Shown here in pieces: positions 325-11,581 of a stretch of 27,885 nucleotides of DNA. The DNA is from Verrucomicrobiota bacterium. Its GTDB lineage: Bacteria; Verrucomicrobiota; Kiritimatiellia; CAIQIC01; Lenti-01. The notes under the pieces are model-generated. The model was not told the DNA's origin and made no database searches. It worked only from the letters and a program-made list of their open reading frames with translations. The stretch covers positions 1 to 27,885 of the forward strand of contig DMJA01000066.1 in the NCBI GenBank assembly GCA_003451935.1. Direction: 5' to 3'. Numbering within the stretch: position 1 is the stretch's first letter; every line of letters begins with the position of its first letter. The position numbers and the translations under genes were made by a program.

Positions 325-2562
325 CTACTTGCTTTTTTTGCGGAACCGCTTGGCCGGGGCGGCTTTTTCCTCTTCCAGCGCGGCCTCGGGCGGGGCTTCC
401 ACCGCCACTTCTTCCAGCTTAGCTTCCGGAGCCGCCACCAAACCGGGTTCCGGCACCGCTTCGACCGGAGCTGCGGGCGCGACACTCGACTCGACCGGCA
501 CCGGCTCCGTTGCCGCTTCGGGAGCGACCGTGGCCTGCGCGATTTCCGGCGCGACCACGGGGGCGATGGCTTCCGCATCTTTCGCGTCCTGGGCCGCCTG
601 CGCCTCGACCTGCTTCTTGAACTCCTCCGCGAATTTCTTCTGGTCGGCCCGCTCCTTCACCCGGCGCTGGTGAACGAGGCGCGCATCTTCGGGAATCCCA
701 GCGTTCTCCTCCAAGACACCCGGATCGGCAACCGACAAGGTGACGAAGATGATGGTTTCGACCTGGCTCTTGACGGTCTTCTCATGCGAGAACAGGCGCC
801 CGATGATCGGGAGGCTCCCCAGGACGGGCACGCGTTTGGTCACCTTTTGATCCTGCACGTCCGTCAAGCCGCCGATGGCCACGGTCTGGCCGCTGCGCAA
901 GGTGAACGTGGTGCCGATCTCCTTGAGCGAAATGATGGGCCAGGAGTTGACGCCCACTTCCTTGAACTCCAGCAGGCGCCGCAGGGAGGGATTGATGAAC
1001 GCCTCGATGTAGTCGTCGGTCTTGACCGTGGCGATCACATCCAGGTCGATGCCGGTCCGGAGATAGCCGCCATCGATGAAGTCCGTCTTGATCCCGGTGT
1101 CCAGCTTCGAGGTGATCGTATCGCCCGGGCTGTCCGTCGTGCCCTTCTTGAGTTCCGAGGAGACGATCGGATCGCGCCGACCGATGCTGAAGAACGAATT
1201 GGTGGCTCCGCTCGTGACGATCATCTTCGGGTTGGAGACGACGCTGACGCCATCCATCGTTTCCAAGGCGCTCAGCACCACGGAGAGATCCGCCGGCGAC
1301 AGGATGGCCGTTTTGATGTCGTCGTACATCTTGTTGGAAATGCGCTCCGCCAGGGATTCGGCGCCGGACCCGCTCGCCCGCTGCGACACCCAATAGGTGG
1401 AAGGCGTTCCCTCCCAATCCTGCTCCGTCAACACGCTGGGCGTGCTTTGCCATCCCGATTCGGTGTCCGACGAGGTTTCAAAGGTGCCGAACCCGGGCTG
1501 ACTGCCCCATGTGTCATAGGTGGCGGCCGAAACCTCCTCGCCGTCCTGATCCTTGAAATCCATCCGGCCGGCTTGCGTCCCCTGCAAATTGTACCCGACG
1601 GCCCGGTCGCGGTTCAGGTTGTCGCGCTGGCGCGTCTCCGACATCTGCCATTCCATATCCGTCAGGCCGACCTTGTAGCCGGCCAGGATGCTCCAATCGA
1701 TGCCCAGTTGCTTCACGGCGTCGTCGGACAGTTCCATGATCTTGGTCTCGATCAGCACCTGGCGGCCGGGCTTGTCGAGGGTCTTGATCAGGGAACGGAC
1801 CTCGGCCAGGCGGGACTCGGTCGAGCGGACCACGATGGCATTGCGGGAGGCCATGGGCAGAACGTTGTTGCTGGATCCAACAATGCCGACCAAGGTGCTT
1901 TGGAGCTGGTCCACGGTGGTGAAATCCAGGAAGAAGGTTTCGACATACAGGGGCTCGGGGGCATTGGTGACCGGGGCCTGGATGCTATACACCTTGGAAT
2001 TGGGCGGCTGTTCCCGGAGATCGAGTTGGTGGACGGCCAGGATCGCGCGTAGCGCGGAAAGCCATTCCACGTCGCGGAGGTTGAAGGTGACGCGGTTGGT
2101 GAGCAGCGAATCGGCTCCAATGATGTTGGCGCCGACCTGCTGGGAGAACAAACTCACGGTGTCCTGCAGGGTCGCATCCTTCAGCGAAACCGTGATTAAT
2201 TCGACCCCGTCCACGGTGCGGGTCGTCATTTGGGTGGCCGCTTCGGCCTCGCCCTCGGCGAAATCGACGAAGTCCACCTCCTGCGGCGCGGCGGGAGCCA
2301 CCGCTTCCGGCGTGGCGGCGGCCGTCGTTTCCGCTGCGGCAGGTGCCACGACTTCCGGCGCGGGCGCGGGCTGTTCCATGGGGGCCAGTTCACGCCCCTC
2401 CAGCGAGGCGGCGTCCAAATTGTCCTTGGCATCGCTCGCGGCATTGATCAGGTCGATGGGGCCGGCCCCTCCCATCAAGGCGCAGGAGAAGACGAGGAGC
2501 AAGAGACCGATCAGGGTTCCGTGCCGGGGCGCGGAGTTACGGGGACGTTTGATTTGTTTCAT
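325..2562 (-). CDS. pilQ: Secretin, PilQ/GspD family (745 aa)
   Basis: Start reassigned to ATG 2562 (AAGGAG RBS, ATGA overlap with the upstream stop). N0-like 'ITVSLKDATLQDTV', N3 'RNAIVVRSTESRLAEVRSLIKTLDKP', and secretin core 'QVLIETKIMEL...GIDW', 'NPKMIVT', 'GQTVAIGGL...KRVPVLGSLPIIGRLF...ETIIFVT'. Last gene after pilMNOP. Confidence 0.93.
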   Translation of the reverse strand: MKQIKRPRNSAPRHGTLIGLLLLVFSCALMGGAGPIDLINAASDAKDNLDAASLEGRELAPMEQPAPAPEVVAPAAAETTAAATPEAVAPAAPQEVDFVDFAEGEAEAATQMTTRTVDGVELITVSLKDATLQDTVSLFSQQVGANIIGADSLLTNRVTFNLRDVEWLSALRAILAVHQLDLREQPPNSKVYSIQAPVTNAPEPLYVETFFLDFTTVDQLQSTLVGIVGSSNNVLPMASRNAIVVRSTESRLAEVRSLIKTLDKPGRQVLIETKIMELSDDAVKQLGIDWSILAGYKVGLTDMEWQMSETRQRDNLNRDRAVGYNLQGTQAGRMDFKDQDGEEVSAATYDTWGSQPGFGTFETSSDTESGWQSTPSVLTEQDWEGTPSTYWVSQRASGSGAESLAERISNKMYDDIKTAILSPADLSVVLSALETMDGVSVVSNPKMIVTSGATNSFFSIGRRDPIVSSELKKGTTDSPGDTITSKLDTGIKTDFIDGGYLRTGIDLDVIATVKTDDYIEAFINPSLRRLLEFKEVGVNSWPIISLKEIGTTFTLRSGQTVAIGGLTDVQDQKVTKRVPVLGSLPIIGRLFSHEKTVKSQVETIIFVTLSVADPGVLEENAGIPEDARLVHQRRVKERADQKKFAEEFKKQVEAQAAQDAKDAEAIAPVVAPEIAQATVAPEAATEPVPVESSVAPAAPVEAVPEPGLVAAPEAKLEEVAVEAPPEAALEEEKAAPAKRFRKKSK

Positions 2563-3059
2563 GGTGCTTTCTCCTTGAGGCGTGGCTCCGGGTCGGCCGG
2601 GGTCTTTGGGACGGGCTTCGCCGGAAATCGGGTGCGGGTAATTCCCAACCGGGCGGATTCGACCCCCCGCTCCGTGATGCGGAGGATGCGCCAATGGAAC
2701 CAGCGCCCGTTGGATTGGATGGAAACCACTTTCTTTTCGCCCACGACGCCGACCCCCTCGACCAGGATTCGGTACGTGCCGTCGGCCGCCCGGGAATGCC
2801 CGCGCACGGGCAGGGCCGGCCAAACCACATCCGCCGTTTCGGTTTCGAATCCCGCCGCCGCGCGGGCCGGGGCGGGCGGCGCATAACCGACCGGCCAGAA
2901 GGGATCACGCCGGGTGGCCGCCTCCATGCGCGCGGCCACCTTGCCTTCGGATTTTTCGGCGGCGGAAAGCCCCATGGCCGCCGCCAACATAATCAGGGCC
3001 GCCCGTGTCCCGGCGGTTCTGGGTTTCTGGACAAAGGTTGGTGGATTCCGCTGGTTCAT
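2559..3059 (-). CDS. PilP/GspC-like periplasmic protein (166 aa)
   Basis: Lies between pilO and the secretin with ATGA overlaps at both ends. Hydrophobic signal 'AALIMLAAAMGLSA', 'RRDPFWP' motif, beta-rich C-terminus. Confidence 0.65.
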   Translation of the reverse strand: MNQRNPPTFVQKPRTAGTRAALIMLAAAMGLSAAEKSEGKVAARMEAATRRDPFWPVGYAPPAPARAAAGFETETADVVWPALPVRGHSRAADGTYRILVEGVGVVGEKKVVSIQSNGRWFHWRILRITERGVESARLGITRTRFPAKPVPKTPADPEPRLKEKAP

Positions 3060-3781
3060 GGAGTCCCGCCGCCCAGGATTTCGTCGGCCTTCTGGCTCAC
3101 CTTGGCCTGCATATCCGGATCGGTCCACACGGGCCACTGCACTTCGAAGCGGACCAAATGCCGCTGCGGATTGTCCGGTTGCGCCGTAATCAGGAAATGG
3201 CTGATGGCGATCAGCGGATTTTCCGCCTGCACCGCGCGCACCCATTTGATGAAGGTGTCATATCCGCATTCCGCCGTCACGCGGGCGGAATAGGCCCGAA
3301 CCGGACCGGCCGGCTCCTTCTTGTCCGGGGCGGTGGCGGCCCCGGGAGTGGGCTTGGATTCGGGCGCGGCGGCCGCCTCCGGTTTTGGGGCGGGCTTGGC
3401 CTTTGCGGGCGGATCGATCAAGCCGATGTTGGTCACCTGGATCGCCTCCACGCCGGAGTCGGTTCCCTTCTTGACCAGGAAGTCCCTCGCCGGGAGCAGG
3501 TAGTTGCCCAGGCGGGGGTGCAGCAGATTCTTTTCGGATTGCATCCGCAGCTCGCGCATGGTCTTCACCAGGTCCTCGCGCATGCCGGCCAGATGGCGGA
3601 TCTGCTGGGGAGCCTGGCGTAGATTGGTTTCCAGCACGATGATCGTGGTGTGCGCCTCGTCCATTTTCCGGTTGATGGGCTGATAGACCCCGGCCCACAA
3701 GCCGTACAGCGCCGCCACCCCGCCGAGGGCGATGAGGGCCAGCATCTTCTGGCGCTCTTTCTTATTGGCCGGCAGGCGCAC
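3056..3781 (-). CDS. pilO: PilO/GspM-like inner-membrane alignment protein (241 aa)
   Basis: GTG start at 3781 with GAGGAG RBS. One TM segment 'MLALIALGGVAALYGLWAGVY', a coiled coil, and a ferredoxin-like C-terminus 'YDTFIKWVRAVQAENPLIAISHFLI'. Follows pilN. Confidence 0.75.
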   Translation of the reverse strand: MRLPANKKERQKMLALIALGGVAALYGLWAGVYQPINRKMDEAHTTIIVLETNLRQAPQQIRHLAGMREDLVKTMRELRMQSEKNLLHPRLGNYLLPARDFLVKKGTDSGVEAIQVTNIGLIDPPAKAKPAPKPEAAAAPESKPTPGAATAPDKKEPAGPVRAYSARVTAECGYDTFIKWVRAVQAENPLIAISHFLITAQPDNPQRHLVRFEVQWPVWTDPDMQAKVSQKADEILGGGTP

Positions 3782-4394
3782 GGAAACTCCTCGGTTTGAA
3801 GCTGACTTCGATCTGGAACAAGCGGTCCTGGCTGGTGGCACCCGGCGTATCGTCGTCGGTGAAGGACGCCACGACGGCCTTGTCGGTCCAGTCGGACATG
3901 GGGGCCTCCGTCTCCCACGCCCGGCGGAAGGATTCCACCCTCGCCTCGGCATTGGCGCCCTGGTGGCGGCCGTTCAGCGTCACGGCGTGTTCGCGCGCAT
4001 AGTGCCCGTCCTTGCCCACGGCCAGCTGCATGCGCAGCTGCAGGGTGCGCCACTGCATCGTGTCCGGGACATGCGTCCGGATTCCTTCCAGGATGTCCTC
4101 CCACGGCAGGCGCGAATGGTGCCAGCCCATGATTTCGTCGAGATAGCCCTTGTGGAGGTTCAGCGCCTGCTGCAGGACATCCGTTTCCTTCTGGCGCTGC
4201 TCGAACTCCATCCGCTGCGGTTCCAACTGCTGGAGCGCCCGGCGGACTTCCAGATAGCCCAGGTATTTCCAGGCCAGGCTGGCCGTCAGGACCGTGACCG
4301 CCACCGCCACCGCGATTTGGCCGATTGTCTTGAAGCGGATCAGGCTGGCGCTGCGCCGCTCCGGTTCCAGGATGAGATTGACTTGGAGGCTCAT
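3762..4394 (-). CDS. pilN: PilN-like protein (210 aa)
   Basis: N-terminal 'QVNLI' (INLLP-like PilM-binding motif), single TM, coiled coil, 'LPWEDILEGIRTHVPDTMQWRTL' and 'VTLNG'. ATGA overlap with the pilM stop. Confidence 0.8.
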   Translation of the reverse strand: MSLQVNLILEPERRSASLIRFKTIGQIAVAVAVTVLTASLAWKYLGYLEVRRALQQLEPQRMEFEQRQKETDVLQQALNLHKGYLDEIMGWHHSRLPWEDILEGIRTHVPDTMQWRTLQLRMQLAVGKDGHYAREHAVTLNGRHQGANAEARVESFRRAWETEAPMSDWTDKAVVASFTDDDTPGATSQDRLFQIEVSFKPRSFRAPAGQ

Positions 4395-5425
4395 GACGGC
4401 TCCAAGACCCCCAGGCACGCCCCGATGGCGGCCGACCACAGCCACGGCTGCGCCGCGTAGCGGTCCGGCATGCTGCCGGGCAGCCGGTCGGGATATCCGT
4501 CCAGCGCGTTCCATTCCTCGCCGGCCTCCTCCCCCTGCGCCCCTTTGAGGAACGCGGTGGCCAAGGCCGCGGGACCGGACACATGCAGTTTCTTCAAGGT
4601 GCAGTTTTCGCCGCGCTCCATGAAATCCCGGCAGCCTACATATTGCGAGCGCAACTCGCGCGTCTGCTGCTCGATCAGGTGGGAGATGTCGAACGCGCCA
4701 TCGGCCAGCACGCCTGCCGCGGTTTCCTCGTCCACGCCCAGCATCTCCATGGTGCTCTTCATGAAGGTGGCCATGCCCATGGAAAAGGTGCGCAACTGGG
4801 AAAGCCGGCCCTGGTTGAACAGCGCCAGCAGGCTGAAGTCCTGGTCGATGTGGATCAGGCCGTGGGCCGTTTCATAGCCCGCCAGGCGGGGATCGCCATG
4901 AAATGCGTTCACGACGGACAGCGAGGAGAGCCCCACGAACCGGGGGGCGACCGCACCGACTTTCGGGAGCAGGTCCAGCATGGACGTCGCCAGGCTTTCC
5001 GGCAGCGCCGCCGCCAGCAAGAGGGCTTCCGTCTTGGCCGTGGCCGGCTGGGCCACCTGGGTGCCCACGCGGCATTCCCCCTGCGCCGGATCGATCCCCA
5101 AGCGCGCGAGCACCTGTTCCGGATGGCCCAGATCCAGTTGTTCCGGAAGGCGGATGAGCTTGAGGACCGCCCGCGCATCGGACGACACCACCGCGGCAAA
5201 GCGCCCCTGCACGTTGGCGGGCAGGACAAGCCCTCCGTGCTTCGGCGTGGAATCTTCGGACACGTCCATCGCGACGGCGGGCAGCATGTCCGCCCCCACC
5301 ACGGCCAACCCCTCCGCGGTTTTTTTCATGCGCACGGCCCGCACGCCGTTGGACGCGAAATCAAGCCCGACCACATCGGTCGGAGCGCGGTTCAGCATGG
5401 CCTTGAGTTTATCCAGCGAGGACAT
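4391..5425 (-). CDS. pilM: PilM-like actin-fold pilus assembly protein (344 aa)
   Basis: 'VVGLDFASNGVRAVRMKK' (GLDIG-type start), 'GLIHIDQDFSLLALF...RTFSMG', 'KLHVSGPAA' and terminal 'AAIGACLG'. First gene of the M-N-O-P-Q series. Confidence 0.82.
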   Translation of the reverse strand: MSSLDKLKAMLNRAPTDVVGLDFASNGVRAVRMKKTAEGLAVVGADMLPAVAMDVSEDSTPKHGGLVLPANVQGRFAAVVSSDARAVLKLIRLPEQLDLGHPEQVLARLGIDPAQGECRVGTQVAQPATAKTEALLLAAALPESLATSMLDLLPKVGAVAPRFVGLSSLSVVNAFHGDPRLAGYETAHGLIHIDQDFSLLALFNQGRLSQLRTFSMGMATFMKSTMEMLGVDEETAAGVLADGAFDISHLIEQQTRELRSQYVGCRDFMERGENCTLKKLHVSGPAALATAFLKGAQGEEAGEEWNALDGYPDRLPGSMPDRYAAQPWLWSAAIGACLGVLEPS

Positions 5426-5474
5426 CCAGCATTTCCGGCGAGTTGATTTGCACGCAACCTTTCACACAGAAATC

Positions 5475-5503
5475 ATCTTGCCGACAACTCTATTGCGATG
5501 CAA
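5475..5503 (-). promoter_or_regulatory. Candidate sigma70-type promoter of pilM
   Basis: Minus strand TTGCAT-N17-CAAGAT about 50 nt upstream of the pilM start. The -10 match is weak. Confidence 0.3.
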
Positions 5504-5595
5504 GCAAGGAGATTGAAAAATATTCAGGGAACTGCCCCCCCCCATTTTTTCGAGCTTGAACGGACGGGATGGCTCTCGAAACACTCCAAACGGCC

Positions 5596-5672
5596 CGGCT
5601 CGGCAGGGACGCCTCGGCCTACCCGGCATATCGGTTGTCTGGCAGGTAGGGCCGAACCCTCCGGGTGAGCCG
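5596..5672. repeat. Inverted REP doublet, same family as 110-187
   Basis: 5645-5672 GGTAGGGCCGAACCCTCCGGGTGAGCCG on plus; 5596-5623 reads GGTAGGCCGAGGCGTCCCTGCCGAGCCG on minus. Same back-to-back geometry as the 110-187 pair (21-nt versus 25-nt spacer). Confidence 0.7.
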
Positions 5673-5740
5673 GGCTCTTTTGGCAGACCTAAAACGGCGT
5701 CCGAAAATCTGAATTTGGCTTCGCCACCCCCTTCCCCCCT

Positions 5741-5779
5741 AAACAACAAACACCCTGCCGGGACCCGGCAGGGTGTTTG
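5741..5779 (-). terminator. Terminator hairpin after the pilin gene
   Basis: Perfect 15-bp inverted repeat CAAACACCCTGCCGG-gac-CCGGCAGGGTGTTTG (5747-5779), followed on minus by TTGTTT, 44 nt past the pilin stop. Confidence 0.85.
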
Positions 5780-5823
5780 GGATTGGCGACGCAGGAACGC
5801 GTCAGCCAAGAAGTGCTCCCGAA

Positions 5824-6183
5824 TTAGGGCAGCACGTGCGGGGCATCCGCCACCAAGGCGGCATTCGGACAGGTCGGATCCGTGCCCAGCGCATTGATGG
5901 TATAGACCGCACCGCCGGCGGGGCAGACAGGCATCACGCCGCCCTTGATATAGGGCGCCACATCCGCATCTGCAGGGACGGCGAGGTCGGCCGCGCCGGT
6001 GGCCAGAGCCCATTGTTCCTTGGCGGCATCGATCAAGCGCATGTTGTTAATACAGGCATTCGCGCGGGACGTATTACGGGCACGCGTGAAAGCCGGAATC
6101 GCAATGGCGGCCAAAATGCCGATGATGGCGACCACGATCATGATTTCGACCAGGGTGAAACCCAGTTTCTTGCTCTTGCTCAT
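5824..6183 (-). CDS. pilA: Type IV major pilin / pseudopilin (119-aa prepilin, 111 aa mature)
   Basis: Class III signal MSKSKKLG|FTLVEIMIVVAIIGILAAIAIP with Glu5. It has its own promoter candidate and terminator and lies downstream of the PilR-like gene. Confidence 0.9.
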   Translation of the reverse strand: MSKSKKLGFTLVEIMIVVAIIGILAAIAIPAFTRARNTSRANACINNMRLIDAAKEQWALATGAADLAVPADADVAPYIKGGVMPVCPAGGAVYTINALGTDPTCPNAALVADAPHVLP

Positions 6184-6273
6184 TCGTTTTTCCTGTTGGT
6201 TGTTGTTTTTAATCAAACCGACCCGGCTTGGTAACTCCATCCTGCTGCCGCCATTTCAATTTCTTTAATTAAA

Positions 6274-6301
6274 ATACTACTACCGCCGGGAGAATATGCA
6301 A
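6274..6301 (-). promoter_or_regulatory. Candidate sigma70-type promoter of the pilin gene
   Basis: Minus strand TTGCAT-N16-TAGTAT inside an AT-rich island (about 6255-6325). No GG-N10-GC sigma54 box was found here. Confidence 0.5.
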
Positions 6302-6375
6302 ACACAATTGTTAAAAATATATTCGGCCGAAAATCCAAGGGGTGCGGGACGTTCCAAGTCAGTCCCCGTCCTTCC

Positions 6376-7755
6376 CTACGGCCCTTTTTGCCCGTTCAAC
6401 TTATGCTGGAGGTCGGCCAGGCTGATGTTGAGATTCTGGGCGGCGGCCTTCTTGTCGCCGCCGGCGCGCTTGAGGGTCTGCTCCAGATAATCCTTTTCCT
6501 TCCGTTGCAAAAAGGCCTTGAGCGAGAGGGCGTGTTCCAGGCCCGGAAGGGCGGAGGACTTGCCACCGGCCGCCGGCGCCTTGCGGGGCGCCGCAAGAAT
6601 CTGGGGCGGGAGGTGTTCGGGCTTGATCTCGCCCCGGTTGGAAGCCAGAAGGGCATTTTGGATGCAGGTTCCAAGTTCGCGGACGTTTCCGGGCCACTCA
6701 TAGGAAGAGAGGATCCGGCACGCTTCGGGGCTGATTCCGCCCGCCTTCTCGCCGGCCGGGGTTTCCTTTTGGATCAGGCGGACGGCAATGGGCAGGATGT
6801 CCTCGGGACGGTCCCGCAACGGCGCGATGGCGATGGAAATGACACTGAGGCGGTTGAACAAGTCCTCCCGGAACAACCCCTGCTGGATCCGCTCGCGCAG
6901 ATCGGTTTGGGCGGACGCCAGCACCCGGGCGTTGATGGGGGTGTTCTGGGTCCCGCCGAGGCGGCGTACCGCGCGGTCCTGCAGCACCTGCAGCAACCGC
7001 CCCTGGACATCCATGGGCAGGGCGTCGATCTCGTCGAGGAAGACCGTCCCGCCTTCCGCCGTCTCGAACAGGCCGGCCTTGGGGGAGTCGGCCCCGGGCA
7101 CGGCCCCCTTGACGTGCCCAAACAGTTCCGATTCCAGCAAAGGCTTGGGCAGCGCGGCGCAATCCACGGACAGGAACAGGCGGTCCTTGCGCGGGCTGGC
7201 CGCATGGATGGCCTTGGCGACGCTCTCCTTGCCGGTGCCGCGCTCGCCGGTGATCAGGACCGTGGCATCCGTCGGCCCCACGCGCCGGATCATCTCGCAG
7301 ACCTTCTGCATCGCGTCGCTCGAGCCGACGAATTCCCCCACCTGCCAGCGCGATTCCAGCTGGGCCTTCAGCATCACGTTTTCCTGGAGGGCCCGGCTGT
7401 ATTCGAGGGCCCGGTGGATGGTCTTGAGCAGTTCATCGATCTTGAACGGCTTGGGCACGTAGTCGAAGGCGCCCAGTTTGAGGGCGTCCACCGCCGTGGC
7501 GATGTTGTCGCAGCCCGTCAGCAAGATCACCACCATGGACGGGTTCCGCTCGTGCGCCCAGCGGAGCAGCTCGAGGCCGTTCATGGTGCCCATGGCGTAG
7601 TCCGTGAGCATGAGGTCGAACGGCTGTTTCTCGAGAAGGGCCTGGGCCTCCTCGCCGCCCGCGGCGACGACGACCTCGTGCTGCTCCCGGTTCAGCAGGC
7701 TGCCGAGCAGCCGCCGCAGGATCGGTTCATCTTCCACCACCAGGAGTCGGGCCAT
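6376..7755 (-). CDS. NtrC/PilR-like response regulator (REC-AAA+-HTH, 459 aa) with a degenerate GAFTGA loop
   Basis: REC 'LLVVEDE...LMLTDYAM...LLTG...YVPKPF'. Walker A GERGTGKE, Walker B FLDEI, 'WPGNVREL', Fis-type HTH. Loop L1 reads ELFGHVKGAVPGA. Confidence 0.92.
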   Translation of the reverse strand: MARLLVVEDEPILRRLLGSLLNREQHEVVVAAGGEEAQALLEKQPFDLMLTDYAMGTMNGLELLRWAHERNPSMVVILLTGCDNIATAVDALKLGAFDYVPKPFKIDELLKTIHRALEYSRALQENVMLKAQLESRWQVGEFVGSSDAMQKVCEMIRRVGPTDATVLITGERGTGKESVAKAIHAASPRKDRLFLSVDCAALPKPLLESELFGHVKGAVPGADSPKAGLFETAEGGTVFLDEIDALPMDVQGRLLQVLQDRAVRRLGGTQNTPINARVLASAQTDLRERIQQGLFREDLFNRLSVISIAIAPLRDRPEDILPIAVRLIQKETPAGEKAGGISPEACRILSSYEWPGNVRELGTCIQNALLASNRGEIKPEHLPPQILAAPRKAPAAGGKSSALPGLEHALSLKAFLQRKEKDYLEQTLKRAGGDKKAAAQNLNISLADLQHKLNGQKGP

Positions 7756-7764
7756 GGGAACTGC

Positions 7765-8880
7765 CTACCCTCCAACGATCTCGCCCATCTTGAAAATGGG
7801 CAGGAACATGGCGATGACCACGCCCCCGATGATGATGCCCAGGAAGGCCATGATCAGCGGCTCCATCAGCGCCGTCAGGCCGCTCACGATGGTCTCGACC
7901 TCGTCCTCGTAGTAGTCGGCGATGCTGTCCATCATGTCGTCGATGCTGCCGGTCTTTTCGCCGGCCTGCAGCATGCGCACGAGGCCGATGGGATAGACCT
8001 GCTGGTTCATGAGGCCCGCCGACAGCGGATCGCCCTTTTCGACCGCGGTCGCCGCGTTCTCGACGATCCGGCCCGCCACGCGGTTGCCCGTGGAGCCGGA
8101 GACGATCTTCAGGGCGGTGAGGATGGGCACGCCGCTGCGCGTCATCTGGCTCAGCATCCGGGCAAAGCGCGCCGCCGCGTTGAAGCGGTTGAGTTTTCCG
8201 AACACGGGAAGCCGCAGCATCATCCCGTCCCACGCATAGGCGCCCTGCTCCGTTTTTTTCCACCGGCGGAGGGCATAGACAGCCCCCCCGATGACGGCGA
8301 TCAGGTAGAGGGCGTACTTGCGCATGAACCCGCTGAGGTCCAGGAGGAACTGGGTCGGCGCGGGCAGCGCCGCGTCGAAATCCTTGAACATGTCGCCGAA
8401 CACGGGCACCACGAAGGTGATCAGGCCGATCGAAATGATGATGCACATGCTCAGCACCACCGTCGGATACATCAACGCCGACTTGACCTTGCGCCGCAGC
8501 TTGGCGCTGGTCTCCAGGAACGTGGCCAGCCGCGCCATGGTTTCGGACAATTCGCCGCTGGTTTCGCCGCCGCCCACCATGTTGCAGTAGAGCGTGTCGA
8601 AGACTGAGGGAAATTGGCGCAGGGACTCGGACAAGGACATGCCGCCCTCGAGGCTTTCGCGGACCTGGTTGATCACCACCTTGAACGCCTTCTGGTCGGT
8701 CTGCTCCTCCATGGCTCGCAGGCAGGCCACGATCGGCATGCCGGCGCCCAGCATGGCGCCCACCTGCCGGGTAAACCCCGGCAGGTTCTGATCCACGATC
8801 TTGCCGGCGCCCGGCACCGGGATGCTTCTCTTCTTGCCGGGCTTGTCCGAAGCCGGCGGTTCCGTGCGGGAGAGGACCAT
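7765..8880 (-). CDS. pilC: PilC/GspF inner-membrane platform protein (371 aa)
   Basis: Two T2SSF repeats ('FTRQVGAMLGAGMPIV...GGETSGELSETMARLA' and 'FARMLSQMTRSGVPIL...GEKTGSIDDMMDSIADYYE'). TMs 'YPTVVL...' and 'EPLIMAFLGIIIGGVVIAMFLPIF'. Confidence 0.95.
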   Translation of the reverse strand: MVLSRTEPPASDKPGKKRSIPVPGAGKIVDQNLPGFTRQVGAMLGAGMPIVACLRAMEEQTDQKAFKVVINQVRESLEGGMSLSESLRQFPSVFDTLYCNMVGGGETSGELSETMARLATFLETSAKLRRKVKSALMYPTVVLSMCIIISIGLITFVVPVFGDMFKDFDAALPAPTQFLLDLSGFMRKYALYLIAVIGGAVYALRRWKKTEQGAYAWDGMMLRLPVFGKLNRFNAAARFARMLSQMTRSGVPILTALKIVSGSTGNRVAGRIVENAATAVEKGDPLSAGLMNQQVYPIGLVRMLQAGEKTGSIDDMMDSIADYYEDEVETIVSGLTALMEPLIMAFLGIIIGGVVIAMFLPIFKMGEIVGG

Positions 8881-8881
8881 G

Positions 8882-10609
8882 TTACTCGCCTCCGGTTACT
8901 TCCAGCGCGGCTTCCAGCGTGGTCAGGCCTTCCTTGACCCGCGCAAAGCCCGCCTGTTTCAATGAAACCATGCCGTTTTTCTCCCCCAGCGCATGCAATT
9001 CCGAACTGTTCAGCCCCTTCATGATGCCCTGCCGGATCGCATCGTTGATGAGAAACACTTCCATGATGGCGCCGCGGCCCTTGTAGCCTTTGTTGCAGCG
9101 CGGGCAACCGACGGCCTTGTACACCGTCGCGCCATCGAGCTCGTGCGGATCGATGTGGTTGTTTTTCAGGATCTCCGGATCGATCTCCGTCGGCCGCTTG
9201 CAGGCGCTGCACAATTTCCGGTAGAGGCGCTGGGCCTGGGCCAGGATCAGCGAGGACCCCAACATGAAGGGCTCCACCCCCATGTCGATGAGGCGCGTCA
9301 CCGCGCCGGGCGCGTCGTTCGTGTGCAGCGTGCTCAGCACCAGATGGCCCGTCAGCGCCGCGCGCAGGGCGATTTGCGCCGTCTCCGCATCGCGGATTTC
9401 GCCCACGAGGACGATGTCGGGATCCTGGCGGAGCACGGAGCGCAGGGCCGCGGCGAAGGTCAGGCCCACCTTGGCATTGACCTGGACCTGGTTGATGCCG
9501 GCCAGTTGGTATTCCACCGGATCCTCGCACGTGATGATGTTGACATCTTCCGTGTTCAGCTCCTGCAGGCAGGAATACAGCGTGGTGGTCTTGCCGCTGC
9601 CCGTCGGGCCGGTCACCAGGATGATTCCGTGCGGCTGGCTGATGCCGTAGCGCATGGCGTTCTCCGCGACCGGATCGAGGCCCAGCGCCCCGAGGCTGGG
9701 GGCCAGGCTGCTCTTGTCCAGCGTGCGCATCACCACCTTCTCCCCGAAGACGGTGGGCAGGATGCTCACGCGCAAATCGACTTCCTTGCCGAGGGCCTTG
9801 ATGTTGAACCGGCCGTCCTGGGGCACGCGATGCTCGGCGATATTGAGGTCCGACAGGATCTTGATGCGGGACAGCACCGCGTTCTGCAGGCCCTTGGGCG
9901 GGCCCGGTTTCTCGACCAGGTCCCCGTCGATGCGGTACCGCAGGCGCACCTTCTTTTCCATCGGCTCGATGTGGATGTCGCTGGCCCCCGTGCGCAGCGC
10001 CTCCACCAGAATCATGTTGACCATGCGGATCACCGGCGCGCCCTCGGCACTCGCCAGCATTTCGTCCAGGCTCTGCTCTTCCTCGCCGCCCTCGACGACC
10101 TGGACCTCCCCCTCCTCCTTCATGAGGGCATCGAGGTCCAATCCCTTGGTCCCGTCCGAGGCCAGCCGCTCCAGGATCGCCTGGATGTCCGGCGCCGGCG
10201 CCGCCAGCGGAACAATTCTCAATCCGGTGGAGGCCGTGAGTTCGTCGATGGCGGCCAGGTCGAAGGGATCGCCCAGGGCGACCGTGAGGGTGCGGCCCAG
10301 GCGCGCCACGGGCACCACCTTGTGGCGCTGCATCATGTCCTGCGGCACCACGTCCATCAACTCCTTGCCCACGGAGAAATGGGCCAGGCCGATCGGTGGC
10401 ATCCGCAGATACTCGGCCAGCGCCAGGGTCATCTCCACCGGCGCCACGCGATGCTTGCCCGTCAGGTATTTCTCCAGCCGGACCCCCGTCTTCAAGGCTT
10501 CTCGCTCGGCCTCGGCCAGGAGATCCGGAGTGATTGAGCCGCGCCGGAGCAGGATCTCCTTGATCTGCCCCGAATGCGTGGCTCCCGGATGTTGGTCGGT
10601 TTCGGACAT
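8882..10609 (-). CDS. pilB: PilB/GspE extension ATPase (575 aa)
   Basis: 'ASDIHIEP', Walker A GPTGSGKTT, 'EDPVEY', Walker B 'LRQDPDIVLVGEIRD', His box 'HLVLSTLHTND', tetracysteine 'CSAC...CPRC', and an N-terminal T2SSE_N domain. Confidence 0.96.
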   Translation of the reverse strand: MSETDQHPGATHSGQIKEILLRRGSITPDLLAEAEREALKTGVRLEKYLTGKHRVAPVEMTLALAEYLRMPPIGLAHFSVGKELMDVVPQDMMQRHKVVPVARLGRTLTVALGDPFDLAAIDELTASTGLRIVPLAAPAPDIQAILERLASDGTKGLDLDALMKEEGEVQVVEGGEEEQSLDEMLASAEGAPVIRMVNMILVEALRTGASDIHIEPMEKKVRLRYRIDGDLVEKPGPPKGLQNAVLSRIKILSDLNIAEHRVPQDGRFNIKALGKEVDLRVSILPTVFGEKVVMRTLDKSSLAPSLGALGLDPVAENAMRYGISQPHGIILVTGPTGSGKTTTLYSCLQELNTEDVNIITCEDPVEYQLAGINQVQVNAKVGLTFAAALRSVLRQDPDIVLVGEIRDAETAQIALRAALTGHLVLSTLHTNDAPGAVTRLIDMGVEPFMLGSSLILAQAQRLYRKLCSACKRPTEIDPEILKNNHIDPHELDGATVYKAVGCPRCNKGYKGRGAIMEVFLINDAIRQGIMKGLNSSELHALGEKNGMVSLKQAGFARVKEGLTTLEAALEVTGGE

Positions 10610-10708: not shown

Positions 10709-11581
10709 ATGGCCGACAAGCGACAATTCGTCCGCAGCGAATCCAAGACCGAAGACGAGCGCGGCGCCCTCAAGACCTTTGAACAGATCCTGGAGGTCAT
10801 GCCGGACGACCGGAGCACGCTGGAGGCGGCCATCCTCGCCGCCCAGGCCTGCGGCGAAGCGGAGATCGCCCGGACCCACCGCCTCCACCTGGCCGACATC
10901 CTGCGCATGGCGGACGACGCGGACGCCCTCCAAAAGCATCTGGAGGCTTTGCGCAACGACCCCGACCCCCGCGCGCAGGAATGGATCGCCGCCTTCGATG
11001 CGGGCTTCAGCGTCGATGTATCCCCCGCGGAGGATTTGGCCAGCCTGGTGGAACCACCCCAGCGGCGCGGCCCCCCCCCCTCCTCCGAATTCAACATCTC
11101 CGAAGAAATCGATCTGGCGTGGCGGCTCTTCGAACACCAGGAGATCGACCAAGAGGAGTATGCGGCGCTGGTCCGGGACCTGACCGAGATGTCCGCCTCC
11201 CCCAACCGGGGCACGGTCTCCGTGCTGCATGCGCTGGAAGCCAGCCACCACCAGAACCTGGATCGCTGTCTCGCGTTTCTTGCGCAGGGCTCCGAAGGCA
11301 CCCCCGTGCCGTACATTTCGCTGTCGGGCTTCACCATGCGGCCCGAGCTGGCGAAGATCCTGCCCGATGCGTTCATGGCCAACCGCGGGGCCATCGTCTT
11401 CGAGGTGATGGGCCATGAATGGCTGGTCGCCGTTCTCAATCCGTTCAGCCTGTCGCTGCGGGCCGACATCCAAAACCTGTGCGGATTCCCCTGCCACTTC
11501 TATCTGGCCCGGGCCTCCGACTTCGACCAGGCCCTGGCCCGCCTCCGGAAAACCGCCAGCGACTCGGACGCCCAATCCTGA
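10709..11581 (+). CDS. Uncharacterised protein: TPR-like helical N-terminus plus a C-terminal PilB/GspE N-terminal (T2SSE_N)-like domain (290 aa)
   Basis: C-terminal 'VPYISLSGFTMRPELAKILPDAFMANRGAIVFEVMGHEWLVAVLNPFSLSLRADIQNLCG...DFDQALARL' aligns by eye with PilB 'MPPIGLAHFSVGKELMDVVPQDMMQRHKVVPVARLGRTLTVALGDPFDLAAIDELTASTG...DIQAILERL'. No Walker motifs. Confidence 0.7.
   Translation: MADKRQFVRSESKTEDERGALKTFEQILEVMPDDRSTLEAAILAAQACGEAEIARTHRLHLADILRMADDADALQKHLEALRNDPDPRAQEWIAAFDAGFSVDVSPAEDLASLVEPPQRRGPPPSSEFNISEEIDLAWRLFEHQEIDQEEYAALVRDLTEMSASPNRGTVSVLHALEASHHQNLDRCLAFLAQGSEGTPVPYISLSGFTMRPELAKILPDAFMANRGAIVFEVMGHEWLVAVLNPFSLSLRADIQNLCGFPCHFYLARASDFDQALARLRKTASDSDAQS

Follow-up and report, generated by a model that had tools for sequence, protein, structure and literature searches.

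In Myxococcus xanthus and Geobacter the genes of the type IVa pilus (T4aP) stand in the order pilB-pilT-pilC-pilS-pilR-pilA and are accompanied by pilMNOPQ (structures 3JC8 and 5TSG). From the phylum Verrucomicrobiota, the pilus-like cluster Amuc_1098-Amuc_1102 of Akkermansia has been described (PMC10688800). T4aP genes are usually spread over several loci, and systems without PilT can still retract (PMC6668835). The mannose-sensitive haemagglutinin (MSHA) pilus of Vibrio cholerae uses a PilT that is encoded elsewhere, and one PilT can serve several pili (PMC9815625). Here we analysed a stretch of DNA of 27,885 nucleotides (in the following the window) from a Kiritimatiellia bacterium of the Verrucomicrobiota (GenBank assembly GCA_003451935.1, contig DMJA01000066.1, positions 1 to 27,885), in which nine genes on the minus strand (325-10609) encode pilB, pilC, a sigma54-type response regulator and a pilin, followed by pilM-N-O-P-Q. 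In the literature on type IV pili in Kiritimatiellia and Verrucomicrobia no description of a system of this type was found.

The source is a metagenome-assembled genome (MAG; G000, 1.85 Mb, 308 contigs, 66% complete), of which the window constitutes contig C129. All other G-numbers refer to genomes of relatives; G001, G008, G012 and G014 are the congeners with the full cluster, and G001 is the sister of the window lineage. Judged from the gene content, the locus probably represents a complete second T4aP-class machine of this bacterium, accessory to the phylum-typical Amuc_1098-1101-type system. The T4aP model for type IV filaments (TFF) of Denise et al. (2019; PMC6668835), in which PilT is mandatory and allowed to lie at another locus, served as the reference. 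PilB, PilC, separate PilM, PilN, PilO and PilP, PilQ and a short-leader major pilin together with minor pilins are all found, and PilT is provided by three genes of the genome, none of which is linked to or co-varies with the window system. An initial annotation of the window had called the machine T4aP-derived, and this is supported by PilB, PilC, the pilin and the separate PilM and PilN, all of which are T4aP-like; the secretin and the protein with the homology region (HR) domain do not discriminate between a T4aP and a type II secretion system (T2SS). The window system is no new kind of machine. It defines a conserved second T4aP lineage in the Kiritimatiellia, characterised by the lack of a linked pilT, by an MshEN-only partner, by a sensor that has no catalytic domain and by a pilin-like minor pilin of about 680 amino acids. 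The features of the locus are as follows:

8882-10609, minus strand: PilB, 575 amino acids (T2SSE 449.6 bits, MshEN 68.4 bits)
7765-8880, minus strand: PilC, 371 amino acids (two T2SSF domains, 209.5 bits)
6376-7755, minus strand: PilR-like response regulator (REC, sigma54 AAA+ and HTH_8 domains)
6184-6375, minus strand: pilin promoter region (sigma54 -24/-12 box absent)
5824-6183, minus strand: major prepilin, 119 amino acids (N_methyl 34 bits)
5747-5779, minus strand: intrinsic terminator hairpin (15-bp stem, 10 G-C pairs, T-rich tail)
4391-5425, minus strand: PilM-like actin-fold protein, 344 amino acids (fold match)
3762-4394, minus strand: PilN-like bitopic protein, 210 amino acids (motif and fold)
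3056-3781, minus strand: PilO/GspM-like bitopic protein (weak match to a hidden Markov model)
2559-3059, minus strand: PilP-like protein, 166 amino acids (fold match)
325-2562, minus strand: secretin, 745 amino acids (PF00263 91 bits, PF03958 35 bits)
10709-11581, plus strand: MshEN-only protein, 290 amino acids (PF05157 52.8 bits, residues 200-283)
1-324, no strand: repeat-bearing intergenic contig end, probable junction to contig C200 (shared 18-mer, synteny)

Gene calls and domain matches bear out the order pilB-pilC-regulator-pilA-pilMNOPQ given by the initial annotation. Its spacings are exact, with 1 nt from the pilB stop to the pilC start and 9 nt from the pilC stop to the regulator start, and the window itself indeed contains no pilT, pilS, pilD or minor pilin. 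ATGA overlaps join pilM to pilN, pilO to pilP and pilP to pilQ.

Comparison with described systems

With the T4aP of M. xanthus and Geobacter the window system shares the order pilB-pilC-(pilS-like)-pilR-like-pilA, the separate genes for PilM, PilN, PilO, PilP and PilQ and the short prepilin leader; in its orthologues the PilR-type regulator is also predicted to drive the pilin gene from a sigma54 promoter. Unlike in these T4aP systems, no window-type member has a pilT between pilB and pilC, the sensor either lacks the HATPase_c domain or is absent, a divergent MshEN-only gene is present, and PilM stays below the Pfam threshold. The window PilC is also about 50 residues shorter at its N-terminus, the window PilP is no lipoprotein, and in G000 the regulator reads GAVPGA and the sigma54 promoter is gone. 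The Akkermansia cluster belongs to the same phylum and likewise has a pilM...pilQ operon with the secretin in last place. However, the window proteins do not fall into the Amuc families, the secretin staying at 80 bits where 750 are required, and PilN giving a trace match (E 0.009).

Like MSHA, the window system has no linked retraction ATPase and, in this genus, a single-locus organisation, whereas the c-di-GMP (cyclic di-GMP) motif of its PilB is sub-threshold and its ATPase is nearest to T4aP PilB. MSHA contains one MshI-type protein, and the window system has separate PilM and PilN proteins. An MshE with a c-di-GMP-binding MshEN domain, as looked for in the MSH type, was not found in the cluster. 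A PilP/GspC-type HR domain, a GspM-like protein, a minor pilin with a GspK-like N-terminus and the absence of a retraction ATPase from the locus are reminiscent of the T2SS, which differs from the window system in GspL, the T2SSG pilin domain and the number of Secretin_N domains (a single match in the window), as well as in the ATPase and the pilin, both T4a-like here. The test for GspL, as a fused PilM/PilN-like protein, and for a GspC in which PDZ or a coiled coil accompanies the HR domain found neither: PilM and PilN are encoded separately, their genes overlapping by ATGA, and the 166-amino-acid PilP has only the HR-type domain.

Components of the machine

Among the profiles for assembly ATPases, TIGR02538 (PilB) gave 627.6 bits with the window PilB versus 593.4 bits for GspE. 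The nearest solved structure is PilB of M. xanthus (3JC8), which matched over the full length with 520.7 bits, with GspE at about 405 bits. The PilB tree places the window-type PilB in a clade of its own (support 99/98), apart from both PilB2 and a GspE-like paralogue. In the same tree PilB2, which adjoins PilT, is highly conserved, and a long stem branch leads to the genus clade. The MshEN domain of the window PilB is degenerate, as first described, reaching 15.9 bits with the c-di-GMP-motif model NF053729 (cut-off 38); with this model the C271 paralogue reached 50.9 bits. As RLEK takes the place of RLG in all eight aligned orthologues, the degenerate c-di-GMP motif is a trait of the clade. 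PilC is short indeed: its alignment with M. xanthus PilC (261.6 bits) covers residues 66-413 of the latter. It keeps the 2WHN-type N-terminal domain intact, and the short form is common to all orthologues of the clade.

The MshEN-only gene, which is transcribed divergently from pilB, encodes no ATPase domain. It stands head-to-head with pilB in all ten genomes whose PilB-module locus was examined. Across 41 relatives its phyletic pattern is nearly identical to that of window-type PilM, with two discordant incomplete MAGs, and its product is a predicted conserved partner of window-type PilB. By eye, the canonical RLG c-di-GMP motif is kept neither in the MshEN-like helices of this protein nor in those of PilB.

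The prepilin has a short leader of the T4a type (...KKLG↓FTLVEIM) and yields a mature protein of 111 amino acids. Its N-terminal helix is nearest to Geobacter and other T4a pilins, GspG being the weakest pilin match in the PDB (E 0.0046). When the pilin was checked for a T2SSG domain, the N_methyl motif alone matched (TIGR01710 37.4 bits versus a cut-off of 88.85). A strong terminator follows directly 3′ of the pilin gene; major pilin genes typically have a terminator of their own.

For the PilM-like protein no Pfam match was obtained and TIGR01175 matched with E 3.6e-4; an Atlas structure model of it aligned to PilM_2 clusters with template modelling (TM) scores of 0.79-0.81. The PilN-like protein starts with an invariant V-N-L followed by a transmembrane helix, and this V-N-L is a predicted PilM-binding peptide of the [IV]NLL type. 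Its AF2 model (predicted local distance difference test score 75.9) consists of a helix and an alpha/beta domain. Foldseek listed PilO (3JC8, 2RJZ, 5UVR) and PilN (4BHQ) with weak E-values and with phage tail-terminator folds intermixed. Sequence searches of the PDB with the PilN-like and PilO-like proteins yielded no match. The PilO/GspM-like protein matched the GspM model NF040576 (E 6.4e-6) and PF04612 (E 0.003), and its gene starts with GTG, in agreement with the orthologues. PilP is no lipoprotein, as had been noted, its signal peptide containing no cysteine and thus no lipobox cysteine. It has a conserved RDPFWP motif and, as its sole domain, a C-terminal HR-type beta domain, whose best match is GspC.

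The secretin scored 126.8 bits with the PilQ model TIGR02515, which is below the cut-off of that model, 116.8 bits with GspD and 116.4 bits with MshL. Of the N0-N1-N2-N3 series looked for in a GspD secretin, sequence profiles show one Secretin_N match and a weak STN match. The long secretin lip postulated in the initial annotation is plausible, with about 164 amino acids between Secretin_N and PF00263 as a rough estimate of its length. A secretin lipobox (VFSC) was considered and dropped, since the cysteine is absent in G012. The tail of the secretin (325-730) comprises about 135 amino acids, with many Ala, Pro and Glu residues and a basic C-terminus, and is unusual for either PilQ or GspD.

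Distribution and retraction

Of 19 congeners 4 were found to have window-type PilM, as were 14 of the 16 genomes that represent other families of the order; searches of five further genera within the family found no window-type system. A profile built from ten PilM orthologues was run against 301 sampled Verrucomicrobiota genomes and matched in 56, nearly all of them Kiritimatiellia. A related-loci search using the PilM-like protein alone gave no match, and the relatives were reached by genome search instead. G001, G008, G012 and G014 have retained the cluster in full, with the divergent MshEN-only gene. In G025, G027, G028 and G031 the MshEN-only gene and then PilB-PilC-(PilS-like)-regulator-pilin lie at one locus and pilMNOPQ at another.

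A second pilM...pilQ operon of G000 is located on contig C165 and matches Amuc_1101, Amuc_1100, Amuc_1099 and Amuc_1098 with 505.9, 107.8, 63.9 and 524.2 bits, respectively. PilM of the C165 type was found in 40 of 41 relatives, with 93-95% identity within the genus. As this PilM is so widespread, the C165 Amuc-type system is the core system and the window system the accessory one. The two coexist as old paralogues.

It had been proposed that pilT was removed from its slot in a Myxococcus-like cluster, which did not hold. Of the 12 loci examined, from six families, 10 lack pilT in the cluster or module, so that the missing linkage is an old, ancestral property of the lineage and not a deletion. 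The two exceptions are G029, with a convergent PilT 1.4 kb after pilC, and G032, in which PilT, a different PilB (about 41% identical) and PilC directly follow window-type pilMNOPQ (L188, C126, 10199-14287). G032 is the sole case seen of a PilT-bearing motor set linked to the window-type alignment and secretin module.

G000 itself holds three PilT-family genes, on C28, C103 and C234, two of which exceed the cut-off of TIGR01420. In the C28 gene (C28:3654-4679, L013; 427.9 bits) one TAG interrupts the reading frame shortly ahead of the Walker A box, and the orthologues in G001 and G013 are open; this TAG could mark a pseudogene or be due to strain variation or misassembly. Immediately upstream of the C28 pilT lies a gene for a 115-amino-acid pilin. 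The other two genes are cut by contig ends. The one on C103 scored 350.1 bits, and the one on C234 (270.1 bits) immediately follows the gene for a second PilB, which shares 44% identity with that of the window. That these two are halves of one gene was rejected, as their sequences differ where they overlap. A fragment at the end of C122 was likewise rejected as the missing C-terminus of the C234 PilT, being a GspE-type C-terminus.

The number of PilT copies within the genus is 3, 1, 1 and 1 in carriers of the window system and 1-4 in non-carriers. The initial annotation had named the filament a candidate for one that does not retract, to be given up if a bona fide pilT and a cognate pilS existed elsewhere and co-evolved with the locus. 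PilT genes do exist elsewhere, three in number, but their copy number does not follow the locus. As T4aP genes are usually scattered, retraction without PilT occurs, and MSHA draws on a PilT in trans, non-retractility cannot be read from gene order. Retraction may be provided in trans by one of the three PilT paralogues, it may be independent of PilT, or the pilus may be static.

That the machine never engages PilT, and is thus either a static, non-retractile adhesive pilus or one with PilT-independent retraction, appears rather unlikely. In favour of it, pilT is missing from most clusters and modules, the number of PilT paralogues does not depend on whether a genome carries the system, PilB has a degenerate c-di-GMP motif throughout the clade, and the dedicated MshEN-only partner might regulate PilB instead. 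Nevertheless, three PilT paralogues are available in trans, T4aP genes usually lie scattered (PMC6668835) and a single PilT serves several pili, as with MSHA of V. cholerae (PMC9815625). In addition, the PilT genes of G032 and G029 stand directly after window-type pilMNOPQ and 1.4 kb from pilC, and missing linkage is in any case uninformative on dynamics. More generally, conclusions on missing genes mislead when a single contig is all they are based on and the MAG is incomplete: in G000 the minor pilins, pilT and an entire second pilus system turned up on other contigs.

Regulation of the pilin gene

The loop of the response regulator reads GAVPGA (7090-7107) in place of GAFTGA, as had been noticed before, and the AAA+ domain shows further changes (ASAQTDL). 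In the relatives the loop is GAFTGA in G008, G012, G014, G025, G028 and G031, GSFTGA in G027 and GAIPGA in G001. In all seven loci with GAFTGA or GSFTGA a TGGCA(C/T)-N5-CTGCT box lies upstream of the pilin gene, at a distance of about 70-105 nt from its start. Upstream of the pilin gene in the window and in the equivalent region of G001 no GG-N10-GC sigma54 element was found, and a simple sigma70 scan of the pilin upstream region gave no site. Loop and promoter box co-vary, with both being present in seven of seven loci and neither in the remaining two (G000 and G001). Of the two marks of a sigma54-dependent activator of the PilR type, the loop and the -24/-12 box, the window has neither, while the seven orthologues have both. 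This pattern suggests that GAFTGA and the sigma54 box were lost together when regulation was rewired once, in the G000/G001 branch. Relatives possess rpoN, of which G000 showed no more than a fragment at the end of a contig.

The slot of pilS between pilC and the regulator is truly emptied in the window lineage, as had been claimed. In G025 (L103:11150-12424) and G028 (L104:5362-6696), which represent two other families, exactly this slot is filled by a gene for a PilS-like protein of 425-445 amino acids, which has a region of six transmembrane helices (weak PilS-type match), a PAS and a HisKA domain, and no HATPase_c domain. Using the G025 sensor as query against G000, G001, G012, G013 and G027 yielded generic PAS/HisKA similarity only and no orthologue. 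The predicted ancestral state is a PilS-like sensor without a catalytic domain, combined with sigma54-dependent transcription of the pilin gene.

The co-loss of GAFTGA and the sigma54 promoter is relevant to the evolution of pili and of bacterial enhancer-binding proteins. Bringing these observations together, one could speculate, as a reading we hold to be doubtful, that the window system belongs to a class-wide T4aP sub-lineage that does without a retraction ATPase of its own. The always-linked MshEN-only protein, as a trans-acting copy of the docking and regulatory domain of PilB, would govern its dynamics, and in G000 and G001 the pilin would have moved from sigma54/PilR to another promoter, with GAFTGA changing alongside. 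If true, the G000/G001 branch would offer a case from nature in which an enhancer-binding protein became uncoupled from sigma54.

The same losses would also fit a decaying relic, that is, a cluster kept by chance in a few species of the genus and no longer assembled. The low number of congeners that carry it and its lack in the five other genera point in this direction, as do the loss of the sensor, of GAFTGA and of the sigma54 promoter, the ASAQTDL changes and the long stem branch in the PilB tree. This is improbable, however: all nine genes are open, the ATGA overlaps are kept and the minor pilin operon on C200 is intact. In addition, pilin and PilB are 94% and 87% identical between G000 and G001 (other cluster proteins 61-87%), which argues for purifying selection. 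The value for the pilin suggests that the protein is strongly constrained or that its gene was recently exchanged along with the new promoter region.

Minor pilins and neighbouring surface proteins

In G001 and G008 a convergent operon after pilQ encodes a membrane protein, a pilin of 146 amino acids, a pilin of about 700 amino acids and a protein of 325 amino acids. G030 has the same three pilin genes directly upstream of pilM. The orthologues of this operon in G000 are located on contig C200, and two of them have the N_methyl motif. They comprise a PilV-like pilin (41.8 bits), a reading frame of 693 amino acids that opens with a prepilin motif (the large pilin-like protein of about 680 amino acids) and a 325-amino-acid protein with a GspK-like N-terminus (E 0.009). 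The 18-mer GGATCCGGGTTGTCGGCC occurs at position 54 of the window and at position 10 of C200 and nowhere else in the assembly, in the orientation which synteny predicts. Such a repeat shared by the two contig ends explains the assembly break between pilQ and the minor pilin operon. That the minor pilins are missing from the system, as had been assumed, was therefore not borne out, their orthologues lying on a contig that is predicted to adjoin the window. In the regions 1-120 of the window and C200:1-120 the 18-mer is part of a G+C-rich repeat of about 50 nt that is, by eye, about 85% identical.

In the window, genes for NHL, BspA-LRR and giant MBG/Ig proteins adjoin the cluster. That the machine was converted to a T2SS-like exporter of the BspA-type and giant surface proteins encoded nearby is highly improbable and without support. 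In favour of it one could cite these adjoining genes, the nearly equal PilQ, GspD and MshL scores of the secretin, the GspC-like HR domain of PilP and the GspK-like N-terminus of the 325-amino-acid minor pilin (E 0.009). However, the NHL, BspA and giant genes are not beside the cluster in G001, G012 and G008, so that the link to exported neighbours falls. Moreover, PilM and PilN are separate genes with no GspL, the secretin shows a single Secretin_N match, PilB and the N-terminus of the pilin are T4a-like, the pilin gene has its own terminator, and a separate secretin-GspE-GspF set exists on C271.

Proposed mechanism of the second T4aP machine

Based on what these protein families are known to do, the prepilin of 119 amino acids would be cleaved after Gly8 by a prepilin peptidase whose gene lies elsewhere, and PilB docked on PilC and PilM would drive polymerisation. 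The N-terminal peptide of PilN would bind PilM, and PilN, PilO and PilP would form a bridge to the secretin via the HR domain of PilP. The minor pilins encoded on C200 (PilV-like, the pilin-like protein of about 680 amino acids, and GspK/PilX-like) would prime and cap the fibre, the large one being a likely adhesin.

Several points weigh against a second T4aP machine of this kind. Its function as a pilus is a predicted one, and a T4aP-like machine can also act in secretion, as the 'T2SS' of Bacteroidetes clusters with T4aP (PMC6668835). The contiguity of C200 with the left end of the window is a prediction from the end repeat and synteny. The regulator may be decaying, which would be consistent with a system on its way out in the genus. 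Finally, no prepilin peptidase of the Peptidase_A24 family was found in G000, which is 66% complete; a Peptidase_A24 PilD is present in all five relatives searched.

Further pilus loci

Besides the secretin-GspE-GspF set on C271, GspE/GspF pairs were found on C85, C219 and C122, which makes at least four such sets with the one on C271, and the total of assembly ATPases in G000 is at least six. A second, small A24 peptidase of G001 and G012 was considered as serving the window system and rejected, since it belongs to a Flp/Tad locus. These loci of the Flp/Tad type (G001, C24, L082; G012, C17, L083) contain the small A24 peptidase of 174-177 amino acids together with Flp-like pilins. Contig C75 (L092) carries at 3600-5967 a pilin gene of 114 amino acids, three genes resembling those of minor pilins and, at the contig end, a fragment of a sigma54-type regulator; its 114-amino-acid pilin resembles the one encoded upstream of the C28 pilT.

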